Shown: positions 1,332-17,466, counted from the stretch's first letter. The stretch is DNA of 48,861 nucleotides from Betaproteobacteria bacterium (GCA_043779845.1 JAYWDK010000454.1:1-48861); one strand, 5' to 3'. The notes: generated by a model not told the origin, from the sequence alone. Numbers and translations: made by a program.

Positions 1332-3740
1332 TTAGCGGGCCGCCAAGCGGGTCCAGGTCTCGACCACGGAGTCGGGGTTCAGCGAGATCGAGACAATGCC
1401 TTCGTCGGCCAGCCAGTCGGCAAAGTCGGGGTGATCGCTGGGGCCCTGGCCGCAAATGCCGATGTACTTGCCGGTGGCGCGGCAAGCGGCAATGGCGCGG
1501 CTGATCAGTGCCTTGACGGCGGGGTCACGCTCGTCGAAGTCTTGCGCCAGTTGCGCCAGGCCCGAATCACGGTCCAGCCCCAGCGTAAGCTGGGTCAGAT
1601 CATTCGAGCCAATCGACATGCCGTCAAAGTGCTCCAGAAACTGCTCGGCCAGGATGGCGTTGCTGGGCACCTCGCACATCATGATCAGGCGCAAGCCATT
1701 TTGGCCACGCGCCAGGCCACGATCGGCCAGCAACTTGCCCACTTGCTCGGCTTGGCGCACGGTGCGCACAAACGGCACCATGATTTCAACGTTGTTCAGC
1801 CCCATGTCGTTGCGCACGCGCTTGAGCGCCTCGCATTCCATGCCAAACGCATCGGCAAAATCACCGCTGATATAGCGCGACGCGCCGCGAAAACCCAGCA
1901 TCGGGTTTTCTTCATCGGGCTCATAACGTGAGCCACCGATGAGCTTTTTGTACTCGTTCGACTTGAAGTCGGACAAGCGCACGATCACCGGTTTGGGCCA
2001 GAACGCGGCCGCGATGGTGGCAATGCCTTCCACCAGCTTGTCGACATAAAACGCGCGTGGCGACGCATGGCCACGGGCCACCGACTCCACCGCTTTTTTC
2101 AGGTCGGGCGCGATGTTGGGGTAGTCAAGAATCGCCTTCGGGTGCACGCCGATGTTGGTGTTGATGATGAATTCCAGCCGAGCCAAGCCCACGCCTGAAT
2201 TGGGGATCTGGGCAAAGTCAAAAGCCAGCGTGGGGTTGCCCACGTTCATCATGATCTTGACTGGGCAGTACGGCAGTTCACCGCGCTGCACTTCGGTCAC
2301 TTCGGTCTCCAACAGGCCGTCGTAAATGACGCCGGTATCCCCCTCGCTGCACACCACTGTCACCAGCGCACCGTCCACCAGCGTGTCGGTCGCGTCACCA
2401 CAGCCCACCACCGCCGGAATGCCCAACTCGCGAGCAATGATGGCGGCGTGGCAAGTGCGCCCGCCCCGGTTGGTGACGATGGCCGAGGCGCGTTTCATCA
2501 CCGGCTCCCAGTTGGGGTCGGTCATGTCGGTGACCAGTACATCACCGGGCTGCACGCGGGCCATCTCGGAGACATTGGTGACCAGGCGCACGGGGCCGGT
2601 GCCGATCTTCTGGCCAATGGCGCGGCCTTCGGCCAGGATCGCGCTGCGCTGGGCGGCGCTGCCCTTGAGCTTGTAGCGGTGCTCCACCTGGCCGGCGGAT
2701 AGGCTTTTAACTGTCTCGGGGCGGGCCTGCAGGATGTAGAGCTTGCCGTCTTCGCCGTCTTTGCCCCACTCGATATCCATCGGCCGGCCATAGTGCTTCT
2801 CAATGATCAACGCGTACTGGGCCAGCTCGATCACGTCGGCATCATTGAGCGCATAACGATTACGCTGCTCGGGCGGGGTGTCCACCGTGCGCACCAAACG
2901 CCCCGTTGCTTGCCGCTCTTCGGTGGACGTGAACTCCATGCGGATCAGCTTGGAGCCCAAGTTGCGCCGGATGATGGGCAGCTTGCCGGCGCGCAGCGCG
3001 GGCTTGTGCACATAAAACTCATCGGGATTGACGGCGCCCTGCACCACGGTTTCACCCAGGCCATAACTGGCGGTGATGAACACCACGTCAGCAAAACCCG
3101 ATTCGGTGTCGATGGTGAACAATACGCCGGCCGCGCCCAGGTCCGAACGCACCATGCGCTGCACGCCTGCCGACAAGGCCACGTCGCCATGGGCAAAGCC
3201 CTGGTGCACGCGGTAGCTGATGGCGCGGTCGTTGTAGAGCGACGCAAACACCTCTTTCATCTTGTGCAGCACGTCGTCGATGCCGTGCACGTTCAGATAG
3301 GTTTCTTGCTGGCCGGCGAAGGACGCATCGGGCAAGTCTTCGGCCGTGGCCGACGAGCGCACCGCAAAACTGACCCCCGGGCTGGTGGCCGTGAGTTCAG
3401 CGAAAGAGGCGCGCACCGCCGCCTCAAAATCGGGCGGAAACGGCGCGTTGATCATCCAGCCGCGGATCTCGGCGCCGGCAACAGCCAGCGCGTTGACGTC
3501 GTCGGTGTCCAGGCGCGCCAGGCGCTCGCTGATCTTGTCGGTTAGGCCGCCATACGCCAGAAACTCGCGGAACGCATGCGCCGTGGTGGCAAAACCACCG
3601 GGCACACGCACGCCGGAGGCGGCGAGTTGGCTGATCATTTCGCCGAGACTGGCGTTTTTGCCGCCAACGACCTCGACGTCGGTCATTCTCAGGTGTTCAA
3701 ACGGGATGACCAGGGCGGTCGCCAAATGGGTTGATGACAT
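1332..3740 (-). CDS. ppsA: Phosphoenolpyruvate synthase (pyruvate, water dikinase)
   Basis: [33 protein letters not shown], phospho-His motif [38 protein letters not shown]. Start moved to ATG 3740 (GGAG RBS upstream); the 96 upstream codons in the ORF track are low-complexity leader. Confidence 0.97.
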
Positions 3741-3915
3741 GGAAAAACTCCAGGAGGGTGAGAAATCTTTGCGGCCCGCCAAAACCCATGCACGCGGGCC
3801 TGCACGCCCGGCCCGGCACCCCGTCTTGCGCTTCTTGATTCGAATTTTTGGCAAGACGGTTTCATCGGGCGGGGCGGCGGCAGCGTGGTGCTGATGACAG
3901 GGCGGCTGGGCGGAC

Positions 3916-3951
3916 GATTTGGCGGGTGATTTGGCGGGTGATTTGGCGGAT
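3916..3951. repeat. 12-bp tandem repeat (GATTTGGCGGGT x3, last copy imperfect) in the ppsA-ppsR intergenic region
   Basis: Read directly: gatttggcgggt gatttggcgggt gatttggcggat. Confidence 0.9.
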
Positions 3952-4008
3952 GACCGGGCGCCTGTCGGGGGGCAAACACCGCGCGTTGTGCCAGCGACAT
4001 ACAGCGGG

Positions 4009-4014
4009 ATTCTA
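4009..4014 (-). promoter_or_regulatory. Candidate sigma70 -10 element (TAGAAT) for ppsA
   Basis: attcta on + reads TAGAAT on -, in the divergent intergenic region. No clear -35 identified. Confidence 0.35.
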
Positions 4015-4083
4015 AGGACGCCCGCCAATCATCCCTATCATCCCCTGAACATCGCCTGACCTCACAGCCTGAACCGGATCCCC

Positions 4084-4908
4084 ATGCCCAATCGCAGCGT
4101 GTTTTTTGTCTCGGACGGTACCGGCATCACAGCCGAGACCTTTGGCAACTCGATCCTGGCGCAGTTTTCGGCCAAGCCGCGCCACGTGCGCCGGCCCTTC
4201 ATCGACACGGTGGACAAGGCCATCACCGTGCGCGGCGAAATCAACCAGGTGGCCGATGCCGAGGCCCGCCGGCCCATTGTCTTCATCACCTTGGTCAATG
4301 ACGCGGTGCGCCAAATCCTGACCAGCGACGATTGCCGCGGCCTGGTGCTCGACATGTTCAAGGCTTTTGTCGAGCCACTTGAAGTGGAATTTGCCGTCAA
4401 GAGCAACCACCGCGTGGGGCGGTTTTCAGACGCGGCCAAGAGCAGCGAATACCACGAGCGCATCGAGGCCATCAACTTCTCGCTGGCCCATGACGACGGG
4501 CAGTCCGCGCGCAATCTGGCCAGCGCCGACGTGATCTTGCTGGGCGTCAGCCGCTGCGGCAAAACGCCCACCTCGCTGTATTTGGCCATGCAGCACGGCA
4601 TCAAGGCCGCCAACTACCCGCTGATCCCCGAAGACTTTGAACGCCACCAGCTGCCCCCGGCGCTGGCGCCGCATCTGGGCAAATGTTTTGGGCTGACGAT
4701 TGATCCTGAGCGCTTGTCGCAGATCCGCAATGAGCGGCGGCCCAACAGCAAGTACGCGGCACTCGACAACTGCCGCTACGAGGTGCGCGAGGCTGAGACC
4801 ATGATGCGGCGCAACAGCGTGGCCTGGCTCAGCTCCACGCACAAGTCGATTGAAGAGATCGCCACCACCATCTTGCGCGACATCCGGCCGGATCGGCTGA
4901 TCTACTGA
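4084..4908 (+). CDS. ppsR: PEP synthase regulatory protein (kinase/pyrophosphorylase, DUF299)
   Basis: FFVSDGTGITAET, RIEAINFSLAHDDG, GVSRCGKTPTSLYLA, SIEEIAT. Divergent from ppsA, the usual arrangement. Confidence 0.95.
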   Translation: MPNRSVFFVSDGTGITAETFGNSILAQFSAKPRHVRRPFIDTVDKAITVRGEINQVADAEARRPIVFITLVNDAVRQILTSDDCRGLVLDMFKAFVEPLEVEFAVKSNHRVGRFSDAAKSSEYHERIEAINFSLAHDDGQSARNLASADVILLGVSRCGKTPTSLYLAMQHGIKAANYPLIPEDFERHQLPPALAPHLGKCFGLTIDPERLSQIRNERRPNSKYAALDNCRYEVREAETMMRRNSVAWLSSTHKSIEEIATTILRDIRPDRLIY

Positions 4909-4911
4909 TTG

Positions 4912-5793
4912 ATGCAAAACGAGGCCCGCACTATTCGCCACATTCAGCATCCCGGGCCGGCGGCGGCGCAGCGTTTAACCGTCGTGCCAGCCCAGGTCAG
5001 CCATCGGGTTTTGCAGTTGCAGGCCGGCCGGTCGCTATTGGCCGCGCTGAGCGAGGCCATCGCGCCCAGCGGCGCCACCAGCGCCGTGCTGACGCTGCAA
5101 AGCGGCAGCTTGTTGCCGTTTGCCCACGTGATGCCGGCGCTAAGCAAAACGTCCGAGCACGCGGTGTATTTCAGTGACCGTTTTGACGCCACCGCGCCCG
5201 TACATTTGGACTTTGCCACCGTCACGTTCGGTCACCGTGATGGCCAGCCCACGCTGCATTGCCACGGTGTCTGGACCGACGCCCGCGGCGCACAACATTG
5301 CGGCCATGTGCTGCCGCATGAATCCGTGCTGGCGAGCCCGATTTCGGCCTCGGCCTGGCTGCTGCACGGTGCGGCGTTTCAGGTGGGTGCCGACGACGAA
5401 ACCCGGTTTTCGCTGCTCAAACCGGTGGCTGTGGCGGGTGCGGCCATGAGCCCAGTCGCCCGGCCCGCGCTGGCCATCCGCCTCAGCCCGAACGAGGATG
5501 TCTGCACCGCGCTCGAAACCATCTGCCGCGAGCATGGATTCAGCCATGCCACGGTGCACGGCGGCGTGGGCAGCACGGTGGGCGTGGTGTTTGACGACGG
5601 CCGCATCATTGAGCCATTTGTGACCGAAACCCTGATCCGCCACGGCCGCGTGAGCCCCGGCCCCGACGGCACGCCACGGGCACAGCTCGATATCAGCATG
5701 ATCGACCACACCGGCGGCCAGGCCAGTGGCCGGCTGGCGCGCGGCGCCAACCCGGTGCTGGTCACGTTTGAGCTGGTGCTCGAACCCGACTGA
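4912..5793 (+). CDS. Tandem PPC/DUF296 (AF0104/ALDC/Ptd012-like fold) domain protein
   Basis: Domain 1 has LHCHG...CGHVL and the DDETRFSLL tail. Domain 2 has IRLSPNEDVCTALE...GGVGS...TFEL. ATG at 4912 (in-frame TTG at 4909). Confidence 0.75.
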   Translation: MQNEARTIRHIQHPGPAAAQRLTVVPAQVSHRVLQLQAGRSLLAALSEAIAPSGATSAVLTLQSGSLLPFAHVMPALSKTSEHAVYFSDRFDATAPVHLDFATVTFGHRDGQPTLHCHGVWTDARGAQHCGHVLPHESVLASPISASAWLLHGAAFQVGADDETRFSLLKPVAVAGAAMSPVARPALAIRLSPNEDVCTALETICREHGFSHATVHGGVGSTVGVVFDDGRIIEPFVTETLIRHGRVSPGPDGTPRAQLDISMIDHTGGQASGRLARGANPVLVTFELVLEPD

Positions 5794-5821
5794 ACCTTGG
5801 CCGATCACTCGGCCCGTGATG

Positions 5822-5853
5822 GCAAGAAAGGGCCGCGAGCAGCCCTTTCTTGC
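5822..5853. terminator. Probable bidirectional intrinsic terminator between convergent genes
   Basis: Perfect 12-bp inverted repeat GCAAGAAAGGGC-N8-GCCCTTTCTTGC between the stops at 5793 and 5857. Confidence 0.75.
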
Positions 5854-5856
5854 AGG

Positions 5857-7725
5857 TCACAAAAAGCCGATCGAGATCCAGGGCACAAAGGCCACGATCA
5901 CCGTGCCGATCAGCAGCGCCACCATGTAGCCCACGATGGGGCCGATGCCCTCGTCGGGGTTGACGCGGCCGATGGCGCAGGCGGCGTAATAACCCACACC
6001 GAGAGGTGGCGAAAACAAGCCCAGGCCCATGGACAAAATCACCACCATCGCGTAGTGCACGTCATGCACGCCCAACTGGCGCGCGATGGGGAACAGCAGC
6101 GGGCCAAACAGCACGATGGCGGGGATGCCTTCGAGCACCGAGCCCAGCACGGTGAAGGCCAGGATCGACACCGCCAAAAACATGGGCGCGCCGCCCGGCA
6201 AGCCGGCCATGGTTTGGGCCAGCAACCGTGAAAAGCCCGACTGCGTCAAACCCCAAGCCATCGCCGTGGCGGTACCGATGATCAGCAGAATGGCGCCCGA
6301 CAGCGAGGCGGTTTCCACCAGCATCGGCCCGATGCGTTGCCACGGAAATTGCCGGTACACCAGCAGCCCCGCCAGCACTGAATACCCGATGCCCAGCGTG
6401 GACACCTCGGTGGCGGTGGCCACACCTTGCACCACCGCCGCGCGGATGACAAACGGCAGCGCCAGCGCCGGCAAGGCGATGACAAACAGCTTGGCCACTT
6501 GCGCCTTGGGCGTGCGCAGCACGTGGCTCAAATCCTCGTGCCGATAGCGGTGGCGCACCACCAGGCACAGCATGGCGCCCAGCACCACGGCCGGCAGCAA
6601 GCCGCCGGTGAACAGCGCCGCAATCGAGATGCCCGTGACCGACCCAATCGTGATCAGCACCAGGCTGGGCGGCACGGTTTCGGTCTGCGCGCCGGTGGCC
6701 GCCAGCAGCGCCACCAAGTCACCCGGCTTGGCGCCACGCGCCTTCATCTCGGGGAACAGCGCGGGCGCGATGGCCGCCATGTCAGCGGCCTTGGAGCCCG
6801 AGATGCCCGACACCAGGTACATGGCGCCCACCAGCACGTAAGACAGCCCGCCCTTGACGTGGCCCAGCAGCGCCGCCAAAAACGCGATCATCGCGCGCGC
6901 CATGCCGGTCATCTCGATCAGCAAGCCCAGGAATACGAACAGCGGCACCGCCAGCAAGATCAGGTGCGACATGCCCTCGTCCATGCGGCCCACGATCACC
7001 GGCAGCGGCGTGGTGGTGGTCAGCGCCAGGTAGCCAAAAGTGGCCAGGCCAAATCCAAAACCAATCGGGATGCCCGCAAAGACGCAGCCGCCGGCCACGC
7101 CTACAAAAAAGATCAGCAGGTTCAACCGGCCCAGGCCGGCGAACAAAGGCGACGCTACCCAGAACACGGCCACGATGGCCGCGATGATGGCCAGCGCCTG
7201 CAGCACCGGCTTCAAGGCCACACCCGACTGCCGCAACAAGCGCAGCAGCGTGAACAAACCCATCAACCCCAGGCCCACCGGCAAAGCCGCGGCGCGCCAC
7301 AGGTTGGACAGCTCCAGCGCCGGCGTGGTGATGGCGCGCTCGTCGGCCGCGTACTCCCAGGCCGGCCAGGCCACCATCGCCAAAAAGGCGCCGCAGGCCA
7401 CTGTGGCCACGGCCTCCAGCAAGGCACGCCGCTCGGGCCCCGCCTTGCTGACCAGCGCGGTCATGCGCATGTGCTCACCACGCCGCAAGGCCACCACCGC
7501 GCCCAGCATCGCCAGCCACAAAAACAGGATCGACGCCAACTCATCCGACCACAACAGCGGGCTGTGCAGCACGTAGCGCGACACCACGCCCGCAAACAGC
7601 ACCACGATGTCGGCCAGCACCAGCAGCGCGGCCGGCACTTCAACGGCCCAGCCCAGCCACCGGTCGAGCCGGGCTGGCCAGCTGGCGTCTGATGGGTCGG
7701 CCATCAACAGATGGCCGCCACTCAT
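5857..7725 (-). CDS. TRAP transporter fused small+large permease (DctQM)
   Basis: N-terminal DctQ part (VVSRYVLHSPLLWSDELA...EHMRMT) fused to DctM part (LLAVPLFVFLG, SGISGSKAAD, PPS, GLFSPPLG). Highly hydrophobic. ATGA overlap with dctP. Confidence 0.92.
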   Translation of the reverse strand: MSGGHLLMADPSDASWPARLDRWLGWAVEVPAALLVLADIVVLFAGVVSRYVLHSPLLWSDELASILFLWLAMLGAVVALRRGEHMRMTALVSKAGPERRALLEAVATVACGAFLAMVAWPAWEYAADERAITTPALELSNLWRAAALPVGLGLMGLFTLLRLLRQSGVALKPVLQALAIIAAIVAVFWVASPLFAGLGRLNLLIFFVGVAGGCVFAGIPIGFGFGLATFGYLALTTTTPLPVIVGRMDEGMSHLILLAVPLFVFLGLLIEMTGMARAMIAFLAALLGHVKGGLSYVLVGAMYLVSGISGSKAADMAAIAPALFPEMKARGAKPGDLVALLAATGAQTETVPPSLVLITIGSVTGISIAALFTGGLLPAVVLGAMLCLVVRHRYRHEDLSHVLRTPKAQVAKLFVIALPALALPFVIRAAVVQGVATATEVSTLGIGYSVLAGLLVYRQFPWQRIGPMLVETASLSGAILLIIGTATAMAWGLTQSGFSRLLAQTMAGLPGGAPMFLAVSILAFTVLGSVLEGIPAIVLFGPLLFPIARQLGVHDVHYAMVVILSMGLGLFSPPLGVGYYAACAIGRVNPDEGIGPIVGYMVALLIGTVIVAFVPWISIGFL

Positions 7726-8735
7726 ACCAACTTGCCCGTGTACTTCTCAAGCACGCCCCACGCCTCGTCACCAAACTTCTTGTGCCATTCGGCGTAGAAG
7801 CCGGCGGCGCGCAGCTTGTTGCGGAACAAGTCGGCGTCGGTGTTGTTGAACGCCAGTCCCTTGGCTTTCAGGTCAGCGACCAAGCCGTCGTTCAACTTCT
7901 TGACGTCGTCGCGCTCTTTCAGGCCGGCGGCGTTGATGTTGCGAGTGACGATGTCTTTCAGGTCTTGCGGCAGCCGGTCAAACGACTTTTTGTTGCCCAG
8001 GAACCAGAAACCATCCCACATGTGGTTGGTGACCGAACAGAACTTCTGCACCTCGTTCAGCTTGGCCGTGGCGATGATGGCCAGCGGGTTTTCTTGTGCG
8101 TCAACCACCTTGGTTTGCAGGGCTGAGTACACCTCGGCAAAGTTGATGGTGGCGGGCGACGACTCAAAAGCCTTGAACATGGACACCCAGAACGGGCTGG
8201 GCGGGATGCGGATCTTCAGGCCCTTCAAATCTTCGGGCTTGCTGACGGGTGCGGTGCTGGTGGTGATCTGGCGGTAGCCGTTGTCCCAGATTTTTTCGAA
8301 CGCAAACAGGCTGCTGCTGGCCGCAATTTGCTTGCGCACGTGGGCGCCCAAATCACCGTCCATCGCAGCCCACACCTGGCTGTAATCCTTGAATGCAAAG
8401 CCCACGCCGCTGATTTGCGCAGCCGGCACCAGCGTGCCCAGAATCAGCGGCGACAGCGTGAAAAAGTCGAGTGCGCCCGAGCGCACCTGCGACAGCATGT
8501 CGGTGTCGTTGCCCAGCTGGTTGTTGGGGAACACCTGGAAATCAATGCGGCCCTTGGACTCGGCGTTGATCGCGGCGGCCATCTCGGCGGCGCGGGCATT
8601 CATCGGGTGCGAAATCGGCAGGTTGTTGCCGTATTTGAAGCTGAACTCTGCGGCGGCTTGGGCCGTGCCAATGGTGATGGTGGGCAGGGCAAGCGCGCTG
8701 GCGCTGGTGATGAGTTGGCGGCGGGTGATGGTCAT
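7722..8735 (-). CDS. dctP: TRAP substrate-binding protein, DctP family, with twin-arginine-like signal peptide
   Basis: VFPNNQLG, ENG-like DNGYRQIT, DLKGLKIR (carboxylate-binding Arg), EVYSALQTKVVDAQENP. N-terminus TITRRQL...AQA. Confidence 0.92.
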   Translation of the reverse strand: MTITRRQLITSASALALPTITIGTAQAAAEFSFKYGNNLPISHPMNARAAEMAAAINAESKGRIDFQVFPNNQLGNDTDMLSQVRSGALDFFTLSPLILGTLVPAAQISGVGFAFKDYSQVWAAMDGDLGAHVRKQIAASSSLFAFEKIWDNGYRQITTSTAPVSKPEDLKGLKIRIPPSPFWVSMFKAFESSPATINFAEVYSALQTKVVDAQENPLAIIATAKLNEVQKFCSVTNHMWDGFWFLGNKKSFDRLPQDLKDIVTRNINAAGLKERDDVKKLNDGLVADLKAKGLAFNNTDADLFRNKLRAAGFYAEWHKKFGDEAWGVLEKYTGKLV

Positions 8736-8821
8736 GGTTTGTCTCCAGGTGGAGTTGTTGGTGTGAGAAAAATAGTGCTCTAAACAAGTCAGTCAATACT
8801 CGGTCGGCACGCCGACGGTGG

Positions 8822-10450
8822 TCAATCCGCCACCACGCGTTGCACGTCGCCGCGCTCAAACAACTGGGCGCGCACGTCGTTTTTGGTGATCTTGCCGTAG
8901 CCCGATTTTGGCAAAACCTGCCAGAAGAATATCTGGCGCGGCCAGCGGTAGCGGGCCAGTCGGCCGTCCACAAAAGCCAGCAGCGCCTCGACTGTTACCG
9001 GCTCGGTGCCCGGGCGGCGCACCACCACGGCCACGCCCACCTCGCCCCAGCTGCGGTCGGGCACGCCCAGCACCGCCACCTCGGCCACGCCGGGGTGCGT
9101 GAGCAGCACTTCTTCGGCCTCGCGCGGGTGCACGTTGGACCCGCCCGAGATGTACATGTCCGACTCGCGGCCGGTGATAAAAAGCAGGCCACGCGCGTCC
9201 AGCACGCCCAGGTCACCGGTGTGAAACCAGCCGCCACGCAGCGCCTCGGCGGTGGCGTCGGGGTTGTCGTGATAACCCGCAAACACCGCTGGCCCGCGGC
9301 AGCAGATTTCACCCACCTCGCCGGTGGCTACGGGCCGCATTTGGGCATCGAGCACCGCCACCTCCATGCCGGTGCGTGGCTTGCCGCAGGCGCCGATGTG
9401 GGCGTTGGGGTCAGCGTCGTCGGCCGAGTGCATGTGCGCGGGCAGCACGGTGATGCAGCCCGTCACCTCGCCCAGGCCAAAGTACTGCACCAACACTTTG
9501 CCCAGCTTTTGCAGCGCCAGGCGCTGGTCGGCGCGGTACATCGGCGCGCCGGCGTAAATCATGAAGCGCAGGGACGAGTGGTCGTACTGGTCCACCGCCG
9601 GGTGCTCCACCAGCATCTTGACGATGGTGGGCACGGTGAACAGGTTGCTGACGCGGTGGCGTGCTATGAGTTGCCACACCAGCTCGGGGTCCATCTTTTC
9701 GGACGGCAGCAGCACGGTGGCCGCACCGCGCGCCACGTTGAGCAGAGCGTGGATGCCCGCGCCGTGCGACAGCGGCGCCACGGCGATCGACACGTCTTGC
9801 TCGGTGGTGCCGGGGATCAGATCGGCCAGGTGGTTGGTCACCACAAAGCTCATCTGGCCATGCGTCAGGATGCCGGCCTTGGGCTTGCCGGTGGTGCCCG
9901 AGGTGTAGAAGAACCACAGCGGGTCGTCTTGCGTGACGGTGGCCTCGAACCGGGCATCCATAACGACCGCGCCGAGGTGCTGCGCCACCAGCGCTTCATA
10001 CGACAACTCGCCCGCTGGCGCCTCGCCGATCCACAGCACCTGCCTGAGCACTGGCGACGCCGCGCGCGCAGCCATGGCATGGGCGGCAAACATCGGCTCG
10101 GCCAGCATCACCACGGCGCCACTGGACGCGCCCAGGTACGCCACCTCGTCGGGGATCAGCCTGAAGTTGATGGGCACCCAGACACAGCCCATGCGGAACG
10201 CGGCCCAGCCGCTCTCGAACAGCGCCAGGTTGTTGCGCGACTGCATCAGGATGCGGTCGCCTTTTTGCAGCCCCAGCCCACGCAGCGCGGCCACCAGCGC
10301 GTCCACACGGGCGTCGATCTGGGCCCAGGTCCATTGCTGCTCGCCCTGGATCAGGCCGACCTTGTCGGGCCACAGCCGCGCCGTGTGGCTGAGCAGCCGC
10401 GCCAGGTTGCAGGCTTGTGCGGCATGTTGTGCGGGGTGTTGGGCGCTCAC
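8822..10450 (-). CDS. Acyl-CoA synthetase / AMP-dependent CoA ligase
   Basis: YTSGTTGKPK P-loop, YFGLGE, GEICCRGP, GWFHTGDLG, ITGRESDMYISGG, LPKSGYGKI. GTGA overlap with the thiolase stop. Confidence 0.93.
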   Translation of the reverse strand: MSAQHPAQHAAQACNLARLLSHTARLWPDKVGLIQGEQQWTWAQIDARVDALVAALRGLGLQKGDRILMQSRNNLALFESGWAAFRMGCVWVPINFRLIPDEVAYLGASSGAVVMLAEPMFAAHAMAARAASPVLRQVLWIGEAPAGELSYEALVAQHLGAVVMDARFEATVTQDDPLWFFYTSGTTGKPKAGILTHGQMSFVVTNHLADLIPGTTEQDVSIAVAPLSHGAGIHALLNVARGAATVLLPSEKMDPELVWQLIARHRVSNLFTVPTIVKMLVEHPAVDQYDHSSLRFMIYAGAPMYRADQRLALQKLGKVLVQYFGLGEVTGCITVLPAHMHSADDADPNAHIGACGKPRTGMEVAVLDAQMRPVATGEVGEICCRGPAVFAGYHDNPDATAEALRGGWFHTGDLGVLDARGLLFITGRESDMYISGGSNVHPREAEEVLLTHPGVAEVAVLGVPDRSWGEVGVAVVVRRPGTEPVTVEALLAFVDGRLARYRWPRQIFFWQVLPKSGYGKITKNDVRAQLFERGDVQRVVAD

Positions 10451-11628
10451 TCGGCCGCTTCCAGCACGCTCAGGTAGTTGGCCACCGCCGCGCCGCCCAT
10501 GTTGAACACGGCGCCCAGCCGCTTGCCGGCCAGTACCTGAGGCACTTGCATGTCGCCCGCCAAACCTGTTAGCTGCATGGCCGCCATCACGTGCTGCGAC
10601 ACGCCGGTGGCGCCAATCGGGTGGCCCCGTGATTTGAGCCCGCCCGAGGGGTTGACCGGCAGCCGGCCGTCCCGGCGGGTGACGCCGTCCAGGATCACCC
10701 GGGCGCCCTGGCCGTGCGGCGCCAGGCCCATGGCCTCGTACTCGAGCAGCTCGGCGATGGTGAAGCAGTCATGCGTCTCGACAAAGCCCAGCTCGTCCAG
10801 CGTGGCGCCGGCCGCCGCCAGGCCCCGCTGCCAGGCCAGCGCCGCGCCTTCAAAACGCGTGGGGTCGCGGCGCGACAGTGGCAAAAACTCATTGACCTGG
10901 GTGTGAGAGCGCCAGCGCACCGCCGGCACCTGGGCACCGGACACCGGCGCCATGGCCAGCACCAGCGCGGCCGCGCCGTCGGACACCAGCGAGCAATCCG
11001 AGCGCTTCAACGGCCCGGCCACGAAGGGGTTTTTGTCGGACGGCGTGCGGCAGAAATCAAAGCCCAGATCCCGCCGCATGTGGGCAGAGGGGTTGTGCAC
11101 GCCGTTGGCGTGGTTCTTGGCGGCAATGGCGGCCAGCGCGTCGCTCTGGTCACCAAAACGCTCAAAGTAGCCAGCGGCGATCTTGCCAAACACGCCCGCA
11201 AAACCGCCCGGCGTGTCGCCCTCTTCCTTGACGTACGAGCAGCGCAGCAGCACCTCGCCGATCTGCGCGTTGGGCAGCGTATTCATCTTCTCGAGGCCCA
11301 CCACCAGCACACGTTTCAGGCGGCCGCTGCCCAGTGCGTCCAGCGCGCCCCAGATCGCGGCCGAGCCGGTGGCGCAAGCGTTTTCAAGCCGAACCGACGG
11401 CACGTGGCGCAGCTCCGGGATGGCCAGCGCGGCCAGCGAACCGCTGAAATCCTGGCGCACGAAGCCGCCGTTGAAGTGGCCCACAAACACGCCGTCGATG
11501 TCGGTCGGCGTCAAGCCCGCGTTGTTGATCGCCTGCATCGCGGCGTCACGGAACAGCTGCTCGGCATCCAGCGCGTCAAGTTTGCCAAACGGGGTGTGGC
11601 CCCAGCCGATGATGTGGGGAGTGGGCAT
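10447..11628 (-). CDS. Thiolase (acetyl-CoA acetyltransferase), SCP2-type
   Basis: ENACATGS (nucleophile Cys), ETHDCFTIAE (HDCF), VNPSGGLKSRGHPIGATG, C-terminal FNMGG in place of the classical CxG. Confidence 0.9.
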   Translation of the reverse strand: MPTPHIIGWGHTPFGKLDALDAEQLFRDAAMQAINNAGLTPTDIDGVFVGHFNGGFVRQDFSGSLAALAIPELRHVPSVRLENACATGSAAIWGALDALGSGRLKRVLVVGLEKMNTLPNAQIGEVLLRCSYVKEEGDTPGGFAGVFGKIAAGYFERFGDQSDALAAIAAKNHANGVHNPSAHMRRDLGFDFCRTPSDKNPFVAGPLKRSDCSLVSDGAAALVLAMAPVSGAQVPAVRWRSHTQVNEFLPLSRRDPTRFEGAALAWQRGLAAAGATLDELGFVETHDCFTIAELLEYEAMGLAPHGQGARVILDGVTRRDGRLPVNPSGGLKSRGHPIGATGVSQHVMAAMQLTGLAGDMQVPQVLAGKRLGAVFNMGGAAVANYLSVLEAAE

Positions 11629-11795
11629 GAGGGTGGGTCTCCGGGTGGGGCTGGAATGTTGGGGCGGTCGGGGCGTTGGGGTGATCCGGGCGGCTGTGCA
11701 GCGGCAGCACGGCCAATTGCCTCTGCCAGGCCCAGCATGCTAAGGGCCGCACCGGGCAAGCCTCACGCGCCAATCAGCGAGCACCGCAAAAACAG

Positions 11796-11810
11796 GTTCA
11801 CGATGTGGAC
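11796..11810. promoter_or_regulatory. Candidate IclR operator GTTCAC-N3-GTGGAC
   Basis: Near-perfect 15-bp palindrome between the divergent thiolase operon and iclR. Confidence 0.5.
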
Positions 11811-11826
11811 ACACCAATCAGGGTTT

Positions 11827-12687
11827 ATGCCTAAATCCGTTTCACTCGACAGCACCGACAAGCCCACCGATGTTGATGCGGCGACAAGCCCCGCGCCATC
11901 ACCCGAAACCGCCGGCGCGCAAACCCTGCGCCGCGGCTTGGCCGTGCTGCGCCTGCTCACGCGGGTGGGCCCGGGCGGCCAACGCATGGGCGAGATCGGC
12001 CGCCGCCTGGCGCTGAACAAATCCACCGCCCTCCGCCTGACGCGCACGCTGGTGGACGAAGGTTTTGTGATGCACGACCAGGCCACCGGCGCCTACCGGC
12101 TGGGGCCCGAGGCTTTTGCCGTGGGCCTGGCGGCCGAGCCCAGCTACGCGCTGCAGCGCCTGGCCGCACCGGCGCTGCGCGCGCTGGCGCTGGAGTCGGG
12201 CGACACGGTGTTTTTCACGGTGCTGCACGGCGTGGAGAGCATCTGCCTATCACGCAGCGAGGGCGACTTTCCGATCCGCAACCAGTTGGTCAAACCGGGC
12301 GACCGATGGCCGCTGGGCGTGGGCGCCGGCAGTTGCGCGATGCTGGCGGTGCTGAGCGACGACGACATCAGCCACATCCTGGCCAGCAACGCCATGATGC
12401 GTGCCGAGCGCTACCCCGGTTGCACCGATGTAGCCATCCGCCGCCTGATCCAGGAAACCCGCGAGCTGGGTTATTGCCTGAACCCCGGCCTGGTGCTGGA
12501 AAACAGCTGGGCCATCGGCGTGCCGGTGTACGACATCTTTGGCCGGCCGGTGGCGTCACTCAGCCTGGCTGCCATCGAGCCCCGCTTGGGCCCGGCGCGG
12601 CGGGCGGCGCTGGGCAATCGATTGATGCAGGCGAGCCGCGAGCTGGCGGGCTTGCAGGGCACCGTGGCGTCTACAGGCGACCTTTGA
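11827..12687 (+). CDS. IclR-family transcriptional regulator
   Basis: GAQTLRRGLAVL...LNKSTALRLTRTLVDEGFV...YRLGP HTH plus effector domain (PLGVGAGS, SLSLA). This is the real 3' part of the 657-aa ORF 10714..12687; start 11827 or 11803. Confidence 0.92.
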   Translation: MPKSVSLDSTDKPTDVDAATSPAPSPETAGAQTLRRGLAVLRLLTRVGPGGQRMGEIGRRLALNKSTALRLTRTLVDEGFVMHDQATGAYRLGPEAFAVGLAAEPSYALQRLAAPALRALALESGDTVFFTVLHGVESICLSRSEGDFPIRNQLVKPGDRWPLGVGAGSCAMLAVLSDDDISHILASNAMMRAERYPGCTDVAIRRLIQETRELGYCLNPGLVLENSWAIGVPVYDIFGRPVASLSLAAIEPRLGPARRAALGNRLMQASRELAGLQGTVASTGDL

Positions 12688-12784: not shown

Positions 12785-15214
12785 TCAGCGTGGCTTGCGG
12801 CTGCCGACCGGGCGGGCGCCAACCGGTTTGCGCGGCTTGGCACCCGTGTCGCGCGGCGGCAGACCGGTGTGCTGGGTGAGCAGCGTGCCGCGGCGCGGCA
12901 CAACGGCGCGTTGAGGCGCCGAGGCGGTGCTTGACGCCACAGGCTTGGCCGCCGAGTAGGCGTTGCCACTGCGCTTTGCCTGCTCCGCCGGCACCGTGCC
13001 CTCGGGCTGGTAGCTGGGGATCAGGTGCCGCTTGCCATTGCCAATCAGATCGGCATGGCCCATGGTGGCCAGGGCCTCGCGCAGCAGCGGCCAGTTGGCC
13101 GCGTCGTGGTAGCGCAAAAAGGCTTTGTGCAGCTTGCGCCGGCGCTCGCCGCGCACGATGTCCACCGTCTCGACCTTGGCCGGGTCACGGCTCAGGCCCT
13201 TCAGCGGGTTGCGGCCACTGTGGTACATGGCCGTGGCGGTGGCCATGGGGCTGGGGTAAAAGGTTTGCACCTGGTCGGCCCTGAAGCCGTTGCGCTTGAG
13301 CCAAAGCGCCAGGTTGAGCATGTCTTCGTCGCTGGTGCCGGGGTGGGCGGCGATGAAGTACGGCACCAAAAACTGCTGCTTGCCGGCCTCGGCGCTGAAC
13401 TTGTCAAACAGCGCCTTGAAGCGGTCGTAGCTGCCGATGCCGGGCTTCATCATCATCGACAAGGGCCCACCCTCGGTGTGCTCGGGCGCGATCTTGAGAT
13501 AACCACCAACGTGATGGGTCACCAGCTCACGGATGTACTCGGGCGACTTCAGCGCCAGGTCGTAGCGCAGCCCTGAGCTGATCAGGATCTTTTTGACGCC
13601 CTTGAGCGCGCGCGCCCGGCGGTACATCTTGATCAGCGGGTTGTGGTCGGTGTGCAGGTTGGGACAAATGCCCGGGAAAACGCAGCTGGGCTTGCGGCAC
13701 GCGGCCTCAATCGCCGGGCTCTTGCAACCCAGGCGGTACATATTGGCGGTGGGGCCGCCCAGATCGGACACCACGCCGGTGAAGCCCGTGACCTGGTCTC
13801 GCATGGCCTCGATTTCGCGGATCACCGAGTCTTCACTGCGGCTCTGGATGATGCGGCCCTCGTGCTCGGTGATCGAGCAAAAGCTGCAGCCGCCAAAGCA
13901 GCCGCGCATGATGTTGACCGAGAAGCGGATCATTTCCCAGGCGGGGATCTTGGTGCTGGCATCAAACCCGCCTGACGCGTCGGCGTGGCGTGGGTGCGGG
14001 CTACGGGCGTAGGGCAGGTCAAACACAAAGTCCATCTCGGCGGTGGACAAGGGGATCGGTGGTGGGTTGATCCACACGTCGCGCCCGCCGTGGCGCTGCA
14101 CCAGCGCGCGCGCATTGCCGGGGTTGGTTTCCAGGTGCAGCACGCGGTTGGCGTGGGCGTACAGCACGGCGTCACGCTTGACTTGCTCGTAGCTGGGCAG
14201 GCGGATCACGCAACGCTCACGCGGGGGCATCTTGATGCGGCCAGTGGCCGGGGCGAGCCGGGCGCCCGCGCTGCGCACAAAGACGATGGGCTGGGCTGCA
14301 CCCGACAGCGTGGGGGAGCCCATGGCGCCGCCATCGGCACGGTCTTTGACACCGTCCTTCGCACCGTCTTTCACACCGTCTTTGGCACATTCAACCCCCT
14401 GCCCCGCCGCCTGTTCGGCCGTGGTTTGGTAGGGGTTGATGTGCTCGTCGATGCGGCCCGGCAAGTCCACTTCGCTGGCGTCGATCTCGAACCAGCCTGC
14501 GGCTGACTCGTCGTCATCGCGGCGCAGGAACGAGGTGCCGCGCACGTCGGTGATCTGCTGCACAGTCTCGCGCGCGGCCAACCGGTGGGCGATCTCGACG
14601 ATGGCGCGCTCGGCGTTGCCGTACAGCAGCAAATCCGCCTGGGCGTCCACCAAAATCGAGCGCCGCACCTTGTCTTGCCAGTAGTCGTAATGGGCGATGC
14701 GCCGCAAGCTGCCCTCGATGCCGCCCAGCACGATGGGCACATCAGCAAAGGCCTCGCGGCAGCGCTGGGTGTAGACCAGCGAGCAGCGGTCCGGCCGCGC
14801 GCCGGCCACGCCGCCGGGCGTGTAAGCATCGTCGCTGCGCGCGCGGCGGTCGGCGGTGTAGCGGTTGATCATCGAATCCATGTTGCCGGCGGTGACGCCA
14901 AAAAACAGGTTCGGCGCGCCGAGCGCCTTGAAGGCCTCCACGCTTTGCCAGTCAGGCTGGTCGATGATGCCAACGCGAAACCCTTGCGCTTCAAGCATGC
15001 GGCCAATCACCGCCATGCCGAAGCTGGGGTGGTCCACATACGCGTCGCCGGTGACGATGATGACGTCGCAACTGTCCCAACCCAGCAGGTCCATCTCGGC
15101 GCGCGAGGTGGGCAAAAACGGGGCCGTGCCAAAACGCTTGGCCCAGTACGGCCGGTAGCTCGTCAGCGGCTTGGCGGCTTGGCCGGCGGTGGGGGAAACA
15201 GAGACAACGGACAC
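12785..15214 (-). CDS. ygiQ: YgiQ-family (UPF0313) radical SAM protein
   Basis: [52 protein letters not shown] (CxxxCxxC), [37 protein letters not shown]. Confidence 0.92.
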
Positions 15215-15308
15215 GGTGGCGGGCTTAGGCTAAAACGCTTGATTTTCGCCTGGATTTGCGTCTTGGCGTGGCTTGGGGCCATCGGGCATCGAAGTGGCCG
15301 AGGCCATG

Positions 15309-15345
15309 TTCCATTTAATTGGAAAAATATCCACTAAACTGGATA
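15309..15345. promoter_or_regulatory. Twin palindromic operators TCCA-N6-TGGA upstream of the XRE regulator
   Basis: TTCCA-tttaat-TGGAA (15309-15324) and TATCCA-ctaaac-TGGATA (15328-15345), 20 bp apart, in an AT-rich patch next to the ATG. Confidence 0.65.
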
Positions 15346-15346
15346 A

Positions 15347-15967
15347 ATGAATCCAGCCGGCACCGACATCAATGCACGCATCGCCCGCCGCGTGCATGAG
15401 CTGCGTTATGCCCAGGGCTTGTCGCTTGATGCGCTGGCCCAGCGCAGCGGGGTCAGCCGGTCCAACATCTCGCTGATCGAGCGTGGCCAAAGCAGCCCCA
15501 CCGCCACGGTGCTCGACAAATTGGCCACCGGCCTGGGCGTCAGCGTGGCCTCGTTGTTTGAGCCTGATACGGCCGCGAGCATGGCGCCGTCGCCGCTGGC
15601 CCGGGTGGCCGATCAGCCGCTCTGGACCGACCCCGGCTCGGGCTACCTGCGCCGCAATGTGTCGCCGCCTGGCGCGCAGTCGCCCATCCAGCTGGTGGAC
15701 GTTGTGTTTTCGCCGGGCCAGCGCGTGGCGTTTGACACCGCTGCGCGCACGCCTGAGATCCACCAGCAAGTCTGGATGATCGACGGCACGATGGACGTGA
15801 CCGTGGGCGGCACGCCCTGGCGCTTGCAGGCCGGTGATTGCCTGGCCATGCGCCTGGATCAGCCCATCGTCTACCAAAACCCCAGCCGCCAACCCGCGCG
15901 CTACCTGGTGGCGCTGGTGAGCCTGCCCTTTTCATCCCCACTCACACCACAACGCAACAGCCCATGA
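15347..15967 (+). CDS. XRE-family HTH regulator with C-terminal cupin domain
   Basis: LSLDALAQRSGVSRSNISLIERGQSSPTATVLDKLATGLGV HTH_3, then a cupin region (QQVWMIDG...LQAGDCL). Confidence 0.92.
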   Translation: MNPAGTDINARIARRVHELRYAQGLSLDALAQRSGVSRSNISLIERGQSSPTATVLDKLATGLGVSVASLFEPDTAASMAPSPLARVADQPLWTDPGSGYLRRNVSPPGAQSPIQLVDVVFSPGQRVAFDTAARTPEIHQQVWMIDGTMDVTVGGTPWRLQAGDCLAMRLDQPIVYQNPSRQPARYLVALVSLPFSSPLTPQRNSP

Positions 15968-16503
15968 CTGACAACATCACCCTGCGCCGCGTTGGCGCTG
16001 CCGAAGCCACTGACCACGCCGAGCCGCTGGCCCAGCACTTGGCCAACGTGCTGCTGGACTGCGTTGAAGGCGGTGCGTCGGTAGGCTTCATGGAGCCGCT
16101 GCCACGCGACAAGGCGCTGGCATTTTGGCGCGGCGTGATCAGCGGCGTGGCGCGTGGTGAGCGGGTATTGCTGGTGGCGCAAACCAGCGCCGGGCAAGTG
16201 GTGGGCACGGTGCAGGTGGTCCTGAGCCAGCCCGACAACCAGCCCCACCGCGCCGACATCGCCAAGATGCTGGTGCACCGCAGCGCCCGCCGGCAAGGCC
16301 TGGCGCAGCGGCTGATGGCCGCCGCCGACAGCGCGGCGCGCATTGAGGGCAAAACCGTGCTGGTGCTGGACACGGTGACCGGCGGTGATGCCGAGCGGCT
16401 GTACCAGCGCGCCGGATGGCAGCGGGTGGGCGAGGTGCCGATGTATGCGCTGATGCCCAATGGCGATGTTTGCGGCACGACGTTTTTTTACAAACACCTC
16501 TGA
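15964..16503 (+). CDS. GNAT acetyltransferase resembling the tabtoxin-resistance protein Ttr family
   Basis: CVEGGASVGFM, RADIAKMLVHRSARRQGLA (motif A), LVLDTVTG..AERLY, VG..P.YAL.P.G. ATGA overlap with the XRE stop places the start at 15964. Confidence 0.88.
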   Translation: MTDNITLRRVGAAEATDHAEPLAQHLANVLLDCVEGGASVGFMEPLPRDKALAFWRGVISGVARGERVLLVAQTSAGQVVGTVQVVLSQPDNQPHRADIAKMLVHRSARRQGLAQRLMAAADSAARIEGKTVLVLDTVTGGDAERLYQRAGWQRVGEVPMYALMPNGDVCGTTFFYKHL

Positions 16504-16668
16504 CCGTGGGCCACAACCGGCTCAAGCACGCCAGCACCGATCCTGGCCAGGGTCGGGCGGGCCAAGGGTTTCGGCATGACGAATCGACCGCTCCAAAATG
16601 ACGACTTCCACCCACGTGGCAATCTGTCTAGACTGCCCGCCCCAGCTGAAACAACCCCTGAAGACAAC

Positions 16669-17466
16669 ATGACATCCAAACTTTCAAGCGCCCCTGTGGC
16701 CGTGATCACCGGCGGCGCGCGGGGCATCGGCCTGGCCGTGGCGCAGTGGTTTTTGAACCAGGGCCACCGCGTGGCGCTGTGGGACATTGACGCCGTCACG
16801 CTGTTGGCCACCGACAAAACGCTGAACGACCCCAACCGCGTGCTGGTTGTGCATTGCGACGTATCGCGCCCCGAGCAAGTGGCTGCCGCCACCGAGCAAA
16901 CCGCCGCCCACTTTGGCCGCATCGACGCGCTGGTCAACAACGCCGGCGTGGCCGTGTTCAAGCCGATTGGTCAGACTACTTTTGAGGACTGGCAAACCGT
17001 GCTGGCCACCAACCTGAACGGGCCGTTTTTGTGCACCCAGGCTATCGCGCCGGTGATGCTCAAAACCGGCGGCGGCGCGGTGGTCAACATCGCCTCCATC
17101 TCGGGCCTGCGCGCCAGCACGCTGCGCGTGGCTTACGGCACCAGCAAGGCCGCGCTGATCCACCTGACCAAGCAGCAGGCCACCGAGCTGGGAACGGTGG
17201 GCATCCGCGTCAACGCCATCGCCCCCGGGCCGGTGGAAACCGAGATGGCCAAGCTGGTGCACAGCGTGGCGATCCGCTCGGACTACCACGACGTGATCCC
17301 GCTGGAGCGCTACGGCAGCACCGAAGAGATCGCCAACGCGGTGGGCTTTTTGTGCAGCTCGGCCGCCAGCTACATCAACGGCCAGGTGCTGGCGGTGGAC
17401 GGTGGTTTTGACGCGGCGGGCGTGGGCTTGCCCACCTTGCGCAAGACGGCGACCGCGGGCGGCTGA
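16669..17466 (+). CDS. Classical short-chain dehydrogenase/reductase (probably NAD-preferring)
   Basis: TGGARGIG, acidic residue after beta2 (WDID), NNAG, YGTSK, VNAIAPG, VDGG. Start at ATG 16669 chosen over 16576. Confidence 0.92.
   Translation: MTSKLSSAPVAVITGGARGIGLAVAQWFLNQGHRVALWDIDAVTLLATDKTLNDPNRVLVVHCDVSRPEQVAAATEQTAAHFGRIDALVNNAGVAVFKPIGQTTFEDWQTVLATNLNGPFLCTQAIAPVMLKTGGGAVVNIASISGLRASTLRVAYGTSKAALIHLTKQQATELGTVGIRVNAIAPGPVETEMAKLVHSVAIRSDYHDVIPLERYGSTEEIANAVGFLCSSAASYINGQVLAVDGGFDAAGVGLPTLRKTATAGG

Follow-up and report, generated by a model that had tools for sequence, protein, structure and literature searches.

A tandem PPC/DUF296 protein, probably a zinc enzyme, accompanies a CoA ligase in a conserved catabolic module of Proteobacteria

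In a 48,861-nucleotide stretch of DNA from Betaproteobacteria bacterium (GCA_043779845.1 JAYWDK010000454.1:1-48861; the window below is this whole stretch), six genes at 4912-12687 had been proposed to form a module for the catabolism of a carboxylate. The evidence supports a conserved coenzyme A (CoA)-dependent catabolic module for an oxidised small acid, in which the PPC/DUF296 protein is likely a Zn enzyme. Gene calls and Pfam/NCBIfam matches placed all six genes where the original prediction had put them. The plus strand carries a tandem PPC/DUF296 (COG1661) protein of 293 aa (4912-5793), predicted to be a Zn enzyme from its PF03479 match, its structural model and its conservation, and an IclR-family regulator of 286 aa (11827-12687; PF09339 and PF01614), which is divergent from the thiolase. 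[quoted passage not shown] The overlaps described between thiolase and ligase (GTGA) and between dctP and dctQM (ATGA) are both present in the sequence. PPC, thiolase and iclR are each single-copy in this genome.

The survey of these genes covered 401 genomes from a single even sampling of the phylum, representing 234 genera; related genomes in it are not independent of each other, so that Fisher values computed from these counts overstate the association. PPC matches were found in 27 of the 401 genomes; five weak partial matches (E 4e-5 to 1e-3) were dropped, leaving 22 genomes with full tandem or split copies at a best E of 3.5e-12 or better. The PRK07470 ligase scored above its cut-off in 22 genomes (14 of the 234 genera), and these are the same 22 that carry tandem or split PPC. 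A lack of co-occurrence between PPC homologues and the ligase/thiolase pair had been named as grounds for refuting the original prediction; what was found is co-occurrence of PPC and ligase in 22 of 22 genomes. Thiolase matches were present in 50 of the 401 genomes, including all 22 with PPC (21 at an identity of at least 56%, one at 51%), and also in 22 genomes without PPC. The PPC profile matched none of the latter 22 genomes, versus 21 of 21 PPC-ligase genomes, and the 20 thiolase loci fetched from PPC-less genomes contained neither PPC nor the PRK07470 ligase. PPC tracks the ligase, not the thiolase.

The pairing is looser on the chromosome than in the gene content. Among 80 loci seeded with PPC, mostly from Betaproteobacteria, the ligase was present in 41, the thiolase in 40, DctP in 33, IclR in 24 and a short-chain dehydrogenase (SDR, at least 38% identical) in 31; the 44 loci of at least 20 kb gave 28, 28, 23, 19 and 22, respectively. 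No ligase was nearby in 39 of the 80 loci, 23 of which had an acyl-CoA dehydrogenase-like neighbour. Where PPC stands apart from the ligase, both ligase (53-73%) and thiolase (60-81%) were found elsewhere in the genome in five of five genomes tested, and the ligase-less PPC neighbourhoods count against simple synteny as the cause of the pairing. The core of the module is ligase, PPC, SDR and thiolase, and the transporter and regulator are optional. The same gene set, with one or two SDRs each, occurs in Paracoccus denitrificans PD1222, Sinorhizobium meliloti Ak57, Terrarubrum and Variovorax paradoxus VAI-C; the PPC of Skermanella stands alone. A classical beta-oxidation operon contains an acyl-CoA dehydrogenase and a crotonase-type hydratase, whereas neither is among the conserved neighbours in the ligase-bearing loci. 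In eight loci of the Zwartia/Sheuella type (L059, L065, L068, L069, L085, L097, L099 and L112, at about 5500-10900), PPC is divergent from a trio of acyl-CoA dehydrogenase, SDR and phosphotransferase-like genes which, by labels assigned by eye, resembles levulinate/4-hydroxyacid genes; this arrangement may be lineage synteny only. Ligase and split PPC stand without a transporter or regulator beside them in a 2.6-Mb genome (G076:C5:190454-192903), as do ligase and fused PPC in the large genomes of group g127, which hints that the module may also act in repair of an internal metabolite, besides scavenging.

The predicted dehydrogenase of the module in the present genome is the SDR at 16669-17466 on the plus strand (SDR-A; PF13561), an open reading frame of 16576-17466 with a probable start at 16669. 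This protein is 70-87% identical to SDRs that betaproteobacterial relatives carry within the module or next to it. In locus L037 the SDR follows iclR and a LysR gene, and in the present genome three unrelated genes intervene; in both cases it sits before trmH-like and rnhB-like genes. An orthologue was detected in 16 of 21 PPC-ligase genomes versus three of 22 thiolase genomes without PPC, and in two of the five PPC-ligase genomes that lack it a 41-43% identical SDR adjoins PPC. The statement that the block holds no dehydrogenase is therefore right for 4912-12687 only, since the SDR at 16669-17466 belongs to the module. Three genes at 12785-16503 separate iclR from the SDR: a radical SAM gene (PF08497, DUF3362), a regulator of the XRE-cupin type and a GNAT gene. 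They have a module-like GC content (0.663) but were rejected as module parts, being present in none of 115 loci.

The PPC protein has a single Pfam match, PF03479 at residues 188-290 (47.9 bits, curated cut-off 25), and its predicted model has a pLDDT of 90. By Foldseek the model matches eight PPC chains at E 2e-7 to 1e-5, and in structure alignments residues 22-200 match single-domain PPC structures at Z 13.2-14.4. Two copies of the PPC domain are thus recognised, the N half by fold and the C half by Pfam, and both halves match the same Protein Data Bank (PDB) chains, with a direct half-to-half profile match that is weak (probability 16%, E 0.0015, 32 columns). The N half carries H116, H118, H132 and E163; the C half carries G220-S221, E239, N280, T285 and E287 and has lost the histidines. 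A profile search returned 1175 representatives at E 0.001 and 281 at 1e-30, of which the best 150 were taken and 132 were full-length. Among these 132 (25-56% identity), H116 and H118 are conserved in all 132, H132 in 131 and E163 in 125, and in the C half S221 in 129, E239 in 128, T285 in 120 and E287 in 127; at the positions matching the N-half histidines, histidine is not one of the common residues. The best fold matches to the tandem protein (Z 13-14), the single-domain PPC/DUF296 proteins 2HX0, 2P6Y, 2DT4, 3HTN, 3HWU and 2H6L, are of no known function and hold all motifs in one 140-aa chain, whereas the tandem protein splits the motifs over two domains or genes: the start of the single-domain chain aligns to the C half and its HxH...GGH to the N half. 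Naturally split PPC pairs divide the motifs likewise (five N genes and six C genes read). We infer from these alignments and the model that the two halves would form one composite Zn site between them, and that PPC probably binds Zn and is catalytic.

The original prediction had further pointed to the fold shared between PPC and acetolactate decarboxylase, and the structure alignment bears this out (4bt2: Z 8.9, root-mean-square deviation 3.4, 115 residues, one domain aligned only). C11orf54, the beta-keto-L-gulonate decarboxylase (1XCR), matches at Z 4.1. Both proteins share with PPC the fold of the His domain, the HxH...H triad and the two-domain build, but they are only 8-10% identical to it, have the His domain second rather than first, and act on free acids in CoA-less routes. 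They are the two members of this fold that have been characterised, and each decarboxylates a beta-keto acid at a Zn held by three histidines (PMC12337341, accessible text). No Pfam/NCBIfam match of the acetolactate decarboxylase family was found in PPC at E 0.001, and no PDB sequence match to that family with protein or profile query; used alone as a query, the PPC protein matched nothing in the PDB by sequence. Longer fused PPC forms were absent at E 1e-10 among 7995 candidates, which is weak evidence. A protein atlas search returned PPC clusters only, one of them mostly from Actinomycetota. Prediction of a ligase-PPC complex with Zn scored 0.00 in two runs and was not used either way. Fused and split PPC occur together in one locus or genome (L051, L060, L114; G239, G420), and split PPC accompanies a LysR gene in L033 and L060, which suggests two paralogous specificities.

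The ligase belongs to a family without a named substrate (NF005676, 870.7 bits, cut-off 774), and its alignment shows the invariant polar residues N206, H207, D210 and H234. The same lack of a named substrate applies to the family of the thiolase (NF005704, 628.9 bits, cut-off 412). This protein has kept C85 (CATG), the H286-D-C-F motif (H286, C288) and G-H336-P, which we take to be the CxS, HDCF and GHP fingerprints, and its best PDB matches are 4bi9, 7yvy and 3zbg. Because SCP2-type structures are closest and C85, HDCF and GHP are kept, the PRK07516 protein is likely a true thiolase rather than an aldolase. A DUF35/ChsH2 partner gene was not found among the window genes scanned; contig C420 has one PF01796 match below cut-off. 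No close characterised PDB relative was found for ligase, SDR or IclR. In L116, L129 and L153 the thiolase or the ligase-PPC pair adjoins an acryloyl-CoA reductase-like gene, presumably AcuI/YhdH, which could dispose of a C3 product.

The TRAP set is complete, with DctP, DctQ and DctM domains. DctP has the conserved arginine claimed for it (R176, in a KIRIP motif), which we take to be the carboxylate-binding residue. Its closest solved structure by far is 4OAN (RPB_2686 of Rhodopseudomonas palustris HaA2; E 1.6e-142, next match 5e-39; 64-66% identity in structure alignments), the ligand of which is reportedly acetolactate. According to a review, 2-acetolactate is among the TRAP ligands of a structural screen (PMC5812351, accessible text). 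DctPs similar to 4OAN adjoin a different ligase (30-33%), and PPC is absent from their vicinity. When 39 DctP sequences were placed in a tree, the ones that adjoin another ligase grouped together with support (95/95), and this group fell among the PPC-linked DctPs with weak support (89/84); further members of the subfamily lie beside a RuBisCO-like protein or a thiamine diphosphate (ThDP) enzyme (labels by eye). In L168 and L169 the neighbours of DctP relatives (56%) are a small glyoxalase-like gene and a RuBisCO-like protein, likewise labelled by eye. A second TRAP system whose DctP falls in the same subfamily (52%) is found at G000:C196:7040-13459, where it is accompanied by another CoA ligase (34%), a ThDP-enzyme-like gene and, nearby, an aldehyde-dehydrogenase-like gene (both labels by eye); from these genes the locus looks like a 2-hydroxyacyl-CoA lyase route.

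The predicted IclR operator, GGTTCACGATGTGGACA, lies at 11795-11811 on the plus strand and fits the group 1 IclR consensus GKTYCRYW3-4RYGRAMC (PMC8222616, accessible text). The palindrome recurs in 16 thiolase-iclR spacers. A matrix was built from 33 sites in betaproteobacterial spacers, with the window excluded and the seed chosen by eye with the window in view; the operator is its top site in the whole genome (23.4 bits, 18.4 for the next). Held-out alphaproteobacterial loci also yield sites with this matrix, as do the regions upstream of lone PPC genes in L075 and L080, and the site that it finds in L032 is the published SMc00266 site at -271. L032 (CP090106.1) is titled pSymB but, at 3.7 Mb and with an SMc-type locus, is probably the chromosome. 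The window has this one site only, with none before PPC or the SDR, and near the thiolase start (11629-11794) no second operator above 9 bits was found here, though one is present in most relatives; because this second site is absent, repression of the catabolic operon may be looser in this genome. The proposal that PPC is itself under IclR is not borne out in this genome, where PPC and the catabolic operon occupy opposite strands and PPC has no operator upstream and starts 3 nt past the stop of ppsR. Since PPC starts there and lacks an operator, it is probably read together with ppsR; in relatives PPC lies inside the IclR operon.

The closest known counterpart is the S. meliloti operon SMc00266-SMc00259 (PMC3687685), which has the same set, TRAP, IclR, thiolase (60%), ligase (58%), SDR and PPC (38%), under the same operator. 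It is one transcript with two SDRs; here the layout is divergent, PPC stands behind ppsR, and the one SDR is of another subfamily (44%). The accessible text describes the operon as putative beta-oxidation and its PPC gene as a "hypothetical protein", and gives no substrate or PPC function (PMC3687685). An IclR regulog named "Bpet4366" includes Pden_4818, Atu4824, SMc00263, Xaut_2805, AZC_4534 and others and lists TRAP, SDR, ligase and COG1661 (PMC8222616, accessible text); it shares operator and regulated families with the present module, but IclR here is only 37-39% identical to the S. meliloti and P. denitrificans copies. With the regulon already predicted computationally (PMC8222616) and the operon in print (PMC3687685), the description of the module as a new system is not supported, although neither paper, in its accessible parts, names a substrate or assigns a role to PPC. 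Further papers, in their accessible parts, mention the operon genes as expression changes only. In the literature covered, to which subscription journals did not belong, no substrate for the operon and no reaction for a bacterial DUF296 protein were found.

The S. meliloti copy is reported, second-hand, to be induced by acetoacetate and 3-methyl-oxovalerate (PMC3687685, accessible text). Together the clues suggest small C4-C6 oxo/hydroxy acids, often branched, and none fixes the compound. On balance we lean slightly towards a C2-branched C4-C6 3-oxo or 3-hydroxy acid of the 2-methylacetoacetate/acetolactate type as the substrate class. SCP2-type thiolases accept 2-methyl-branched 3-oxoacyl-CoAs. 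For the module as a whole, our preferred though tentative reading, which we would not put at an even chance, is uptake and CoA-dependent thiolysis of such an acid, PPC being a Zn isomerase that acts at C2-C3. In this scheme the acid would enter through the TRAP system, and its 3-hydroxy form would be oxidised to the 3-oxo form by the SDR; PPC would isomerise the acid at C2-C3 into the form accepted by the ligase route, the ligase would convert it to the CoA ester, and the thiolase would cut this into acetyl-CoA and propionyl- or lactyl-CoA. Repression of the operon by IclR would last until the free acid binds the regulator. As to the reaction of PPC, we hold with some doubt that it may be an enolate/enediolate isomerisation, by an epimerase or as a ketol rearrangement, and not hydration or decarboxylation. 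Acetolactate decarboxylase also rearranges the wrong enantiomer of its substrate. The idea that the module imports an already oxidised acid (3-oxo or 3-hydroxy) fits the conserved CoA module and the oxo-acid inducers of the S. meliloti copy, but its premise of a missing dehydrogenase does not stand.

Several points weigh against PPC as an isomerase and against the substrate class. The inducers are second-hand and come from an orthologue with a DctP of 56% and an IclR of 37% identity; an inducer, moreover, may be a mimic or a precursor of the substrate. Since other gene sets are served by the same DctP subfamily, a ligand is not safely carried over within it. The C2 of a 2-methyl-3-oxo thioester racemises spontaneously, so that an epimerase would be needed only for a quaternary C2, as in acetolactate. 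The loci read show no conserved gene for the removal of lactyl-CoA. Of the fold, the two members characterised so far are decarboxylases and not isomerases (PMC12337341), and mutants in the two S. meliloti SDRs had no phenotype (PMC3687685), according to the accessible texts.

A close rival, though less probable than the isomerase reading, is that PPC is a Zn decarboxylase: the SDR would oxidise an imported 2,3-dihydroxy or 3-hydroxy diacid to a 3-oxo diacid, from which PPC would remove one carboxyl. What is left, a 3-oxo monoacid analogous to acetoacetate that would also be the IclR effector, would be ligated and thiolysed. Acetolactate decarboxylase and C11orf54 decarboxylate beta-keto acids, C11orf54 being paired with a 3-dehydrogenase (PMC12337341), and acetoacetate is a reported inducer (PMC3687685), as given in the accessible texts. 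PPC directly adjoins an SDR in many loci and occurs with only SDR and IclR in L199, and all four enzymes would be used. However, a diacid is needed and both inducers are monoacids, as presumably is the 4OAN ligand; the domain order is reversed relative to acetolactate decarboxylase, with one domain aligned only. If acetolactate itself were decarboxylated nothing would be left for the ligase, and decarboxylation of acetolactate to acetoin was rejected as the purpose of the module for this reason.

Another close rival, marginally less probable again, is that PPC is a new Zn enoyl-CoA hydratase and that ligase, PPC, SDR and thiolase perform one round of beta-oxidation on a 2-enoic acid such as tiglate, which would need no acyl-CoA dehydrogenase. 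Hydration is the sole step missing from ligase, SDR and thiolase, the conserved neighbours include no crotonase-like gene, and the strict pairing with the ligase fits an enzyme that acts on the ligase product; 3-methyl-2-oxovalerate is moreover degraded via tiglyl-CoA. Yet no hydratase is known from this fold, and neither of its two characterised members is one (PMC12337341), the reported inducers are oxo acids (PMC3687685), and the ligase pocket has invariant polar residues. A hydratase-free route of ligase, dehydrogenase and thiolase also exists for a 3-hydroxy acid, namely the 2-deoxyribonate acyl-CoA route of Klebsiella michiganensis M5al (PMC6365646, accessible text, as for the two preceding papers). 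This route follows the same logic as the present module, with a CoA synthetase, a hydroxyacyl-CoA dehydrogenase and a thiolase and without hydratase or acyl-CoA dehydrogenase; it differs in having a CoA-transferase and a glycerate kinase, and the accessible text names no PPC. By this analogy, one of logic and not of sequence, it appears to be the nearest pathway.

One version of the isomerase reading goes further and seems rather improbable: PPC would be an acetohydroxy-acid racemase/ketol mutase, a third catalytic class of the fold, in a hitherto undescribed pathway that scavenges leaked precursors of branched-chain amino acids. Acetolactate, acetohydroxybutyrate and their dihydroxy forms would be taken up, and acetolactyl-CoA would be made and split by thiolysis into lactyl-CoA and acetyl-CoA. 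A likeness exists between the two inducers reported and the two sides of an acetolactate-type ketol rearrangement.

We give little credence to PPC as a Zn thioesterase that frees CoA from a 2-hydroxyacyl-CoA such as lactyl-CoA left by the thiolase: C11orf54 shows weak esterase activity, which is not its real function (PMC12337341, accessible text), and the Klebsiella route uses a CoA-transferase at that step, of which this module has none (PMC6365646, accessible text), but PPC follows the ligase rather than the thiolase. A non-catalytic PPC, either a DUF35-like thiolase partner or the DNA-binding protein of its database name, is very hard to reconcile with a thiolase that lacks PPC in 22 of 43 genomes and lies far from it in several PPC genomes, with near-invariant His, Glu and Ser that resemble an active site, and with PF03479 as sole Pfam match in a module that already has its own IclR; both versions were rejected. 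Of the two roles originally proposed for PPC, that of a likely Zn enzyme is thus retained and that of thiolase partner is not.

The remaining features of the locus lie around PPC. A hairpin had been noted where PPC and dctQM converge, and a perfect 12-bp stem with A-rich and U-rich arms is indeed present at 5822-5853 (no strand assigned); none of 200 shuffles was equally stable on either strand (z -4.5 on the plus and -4.9 on the minus strand). A simple consensus terminator scan did not list this hairpin, which from its sequence is likely a bidirectional terminator. Upstream of PPC, at 1332-4908, are a phosphoenolpyruvate synthase-like gene and its regulator ppsR (PF03618), which was rejected as a module part because it adjoins PPC in only 13 of 80 loci.

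The module is not a new kind of system, its logic being that of ordinary CoA-dependent catabolism. What is new here is the exact co-occurrence profile of PPC and ligase, the betaproteobacterial layout and the link to the reported inducers. Prokaryotic PPC/DUF296 proteins have several solved structures and an annotation as DNA-binding; the one-to-one link to the ligase, the four-enzyme set, the predicted operator and the reported inducers make their function testable in the harmless and genetically tractable S. meliloti 1021 and also in Paracoccus denitrificans PD1222. The outcome of such assays would give a substrate to two unnamed families, PRK07470 and PRK07516, within a carbon-scavenging route common to Bradyrhizobium-sized genomes, roseobacters and freshwater Burkholderiales.

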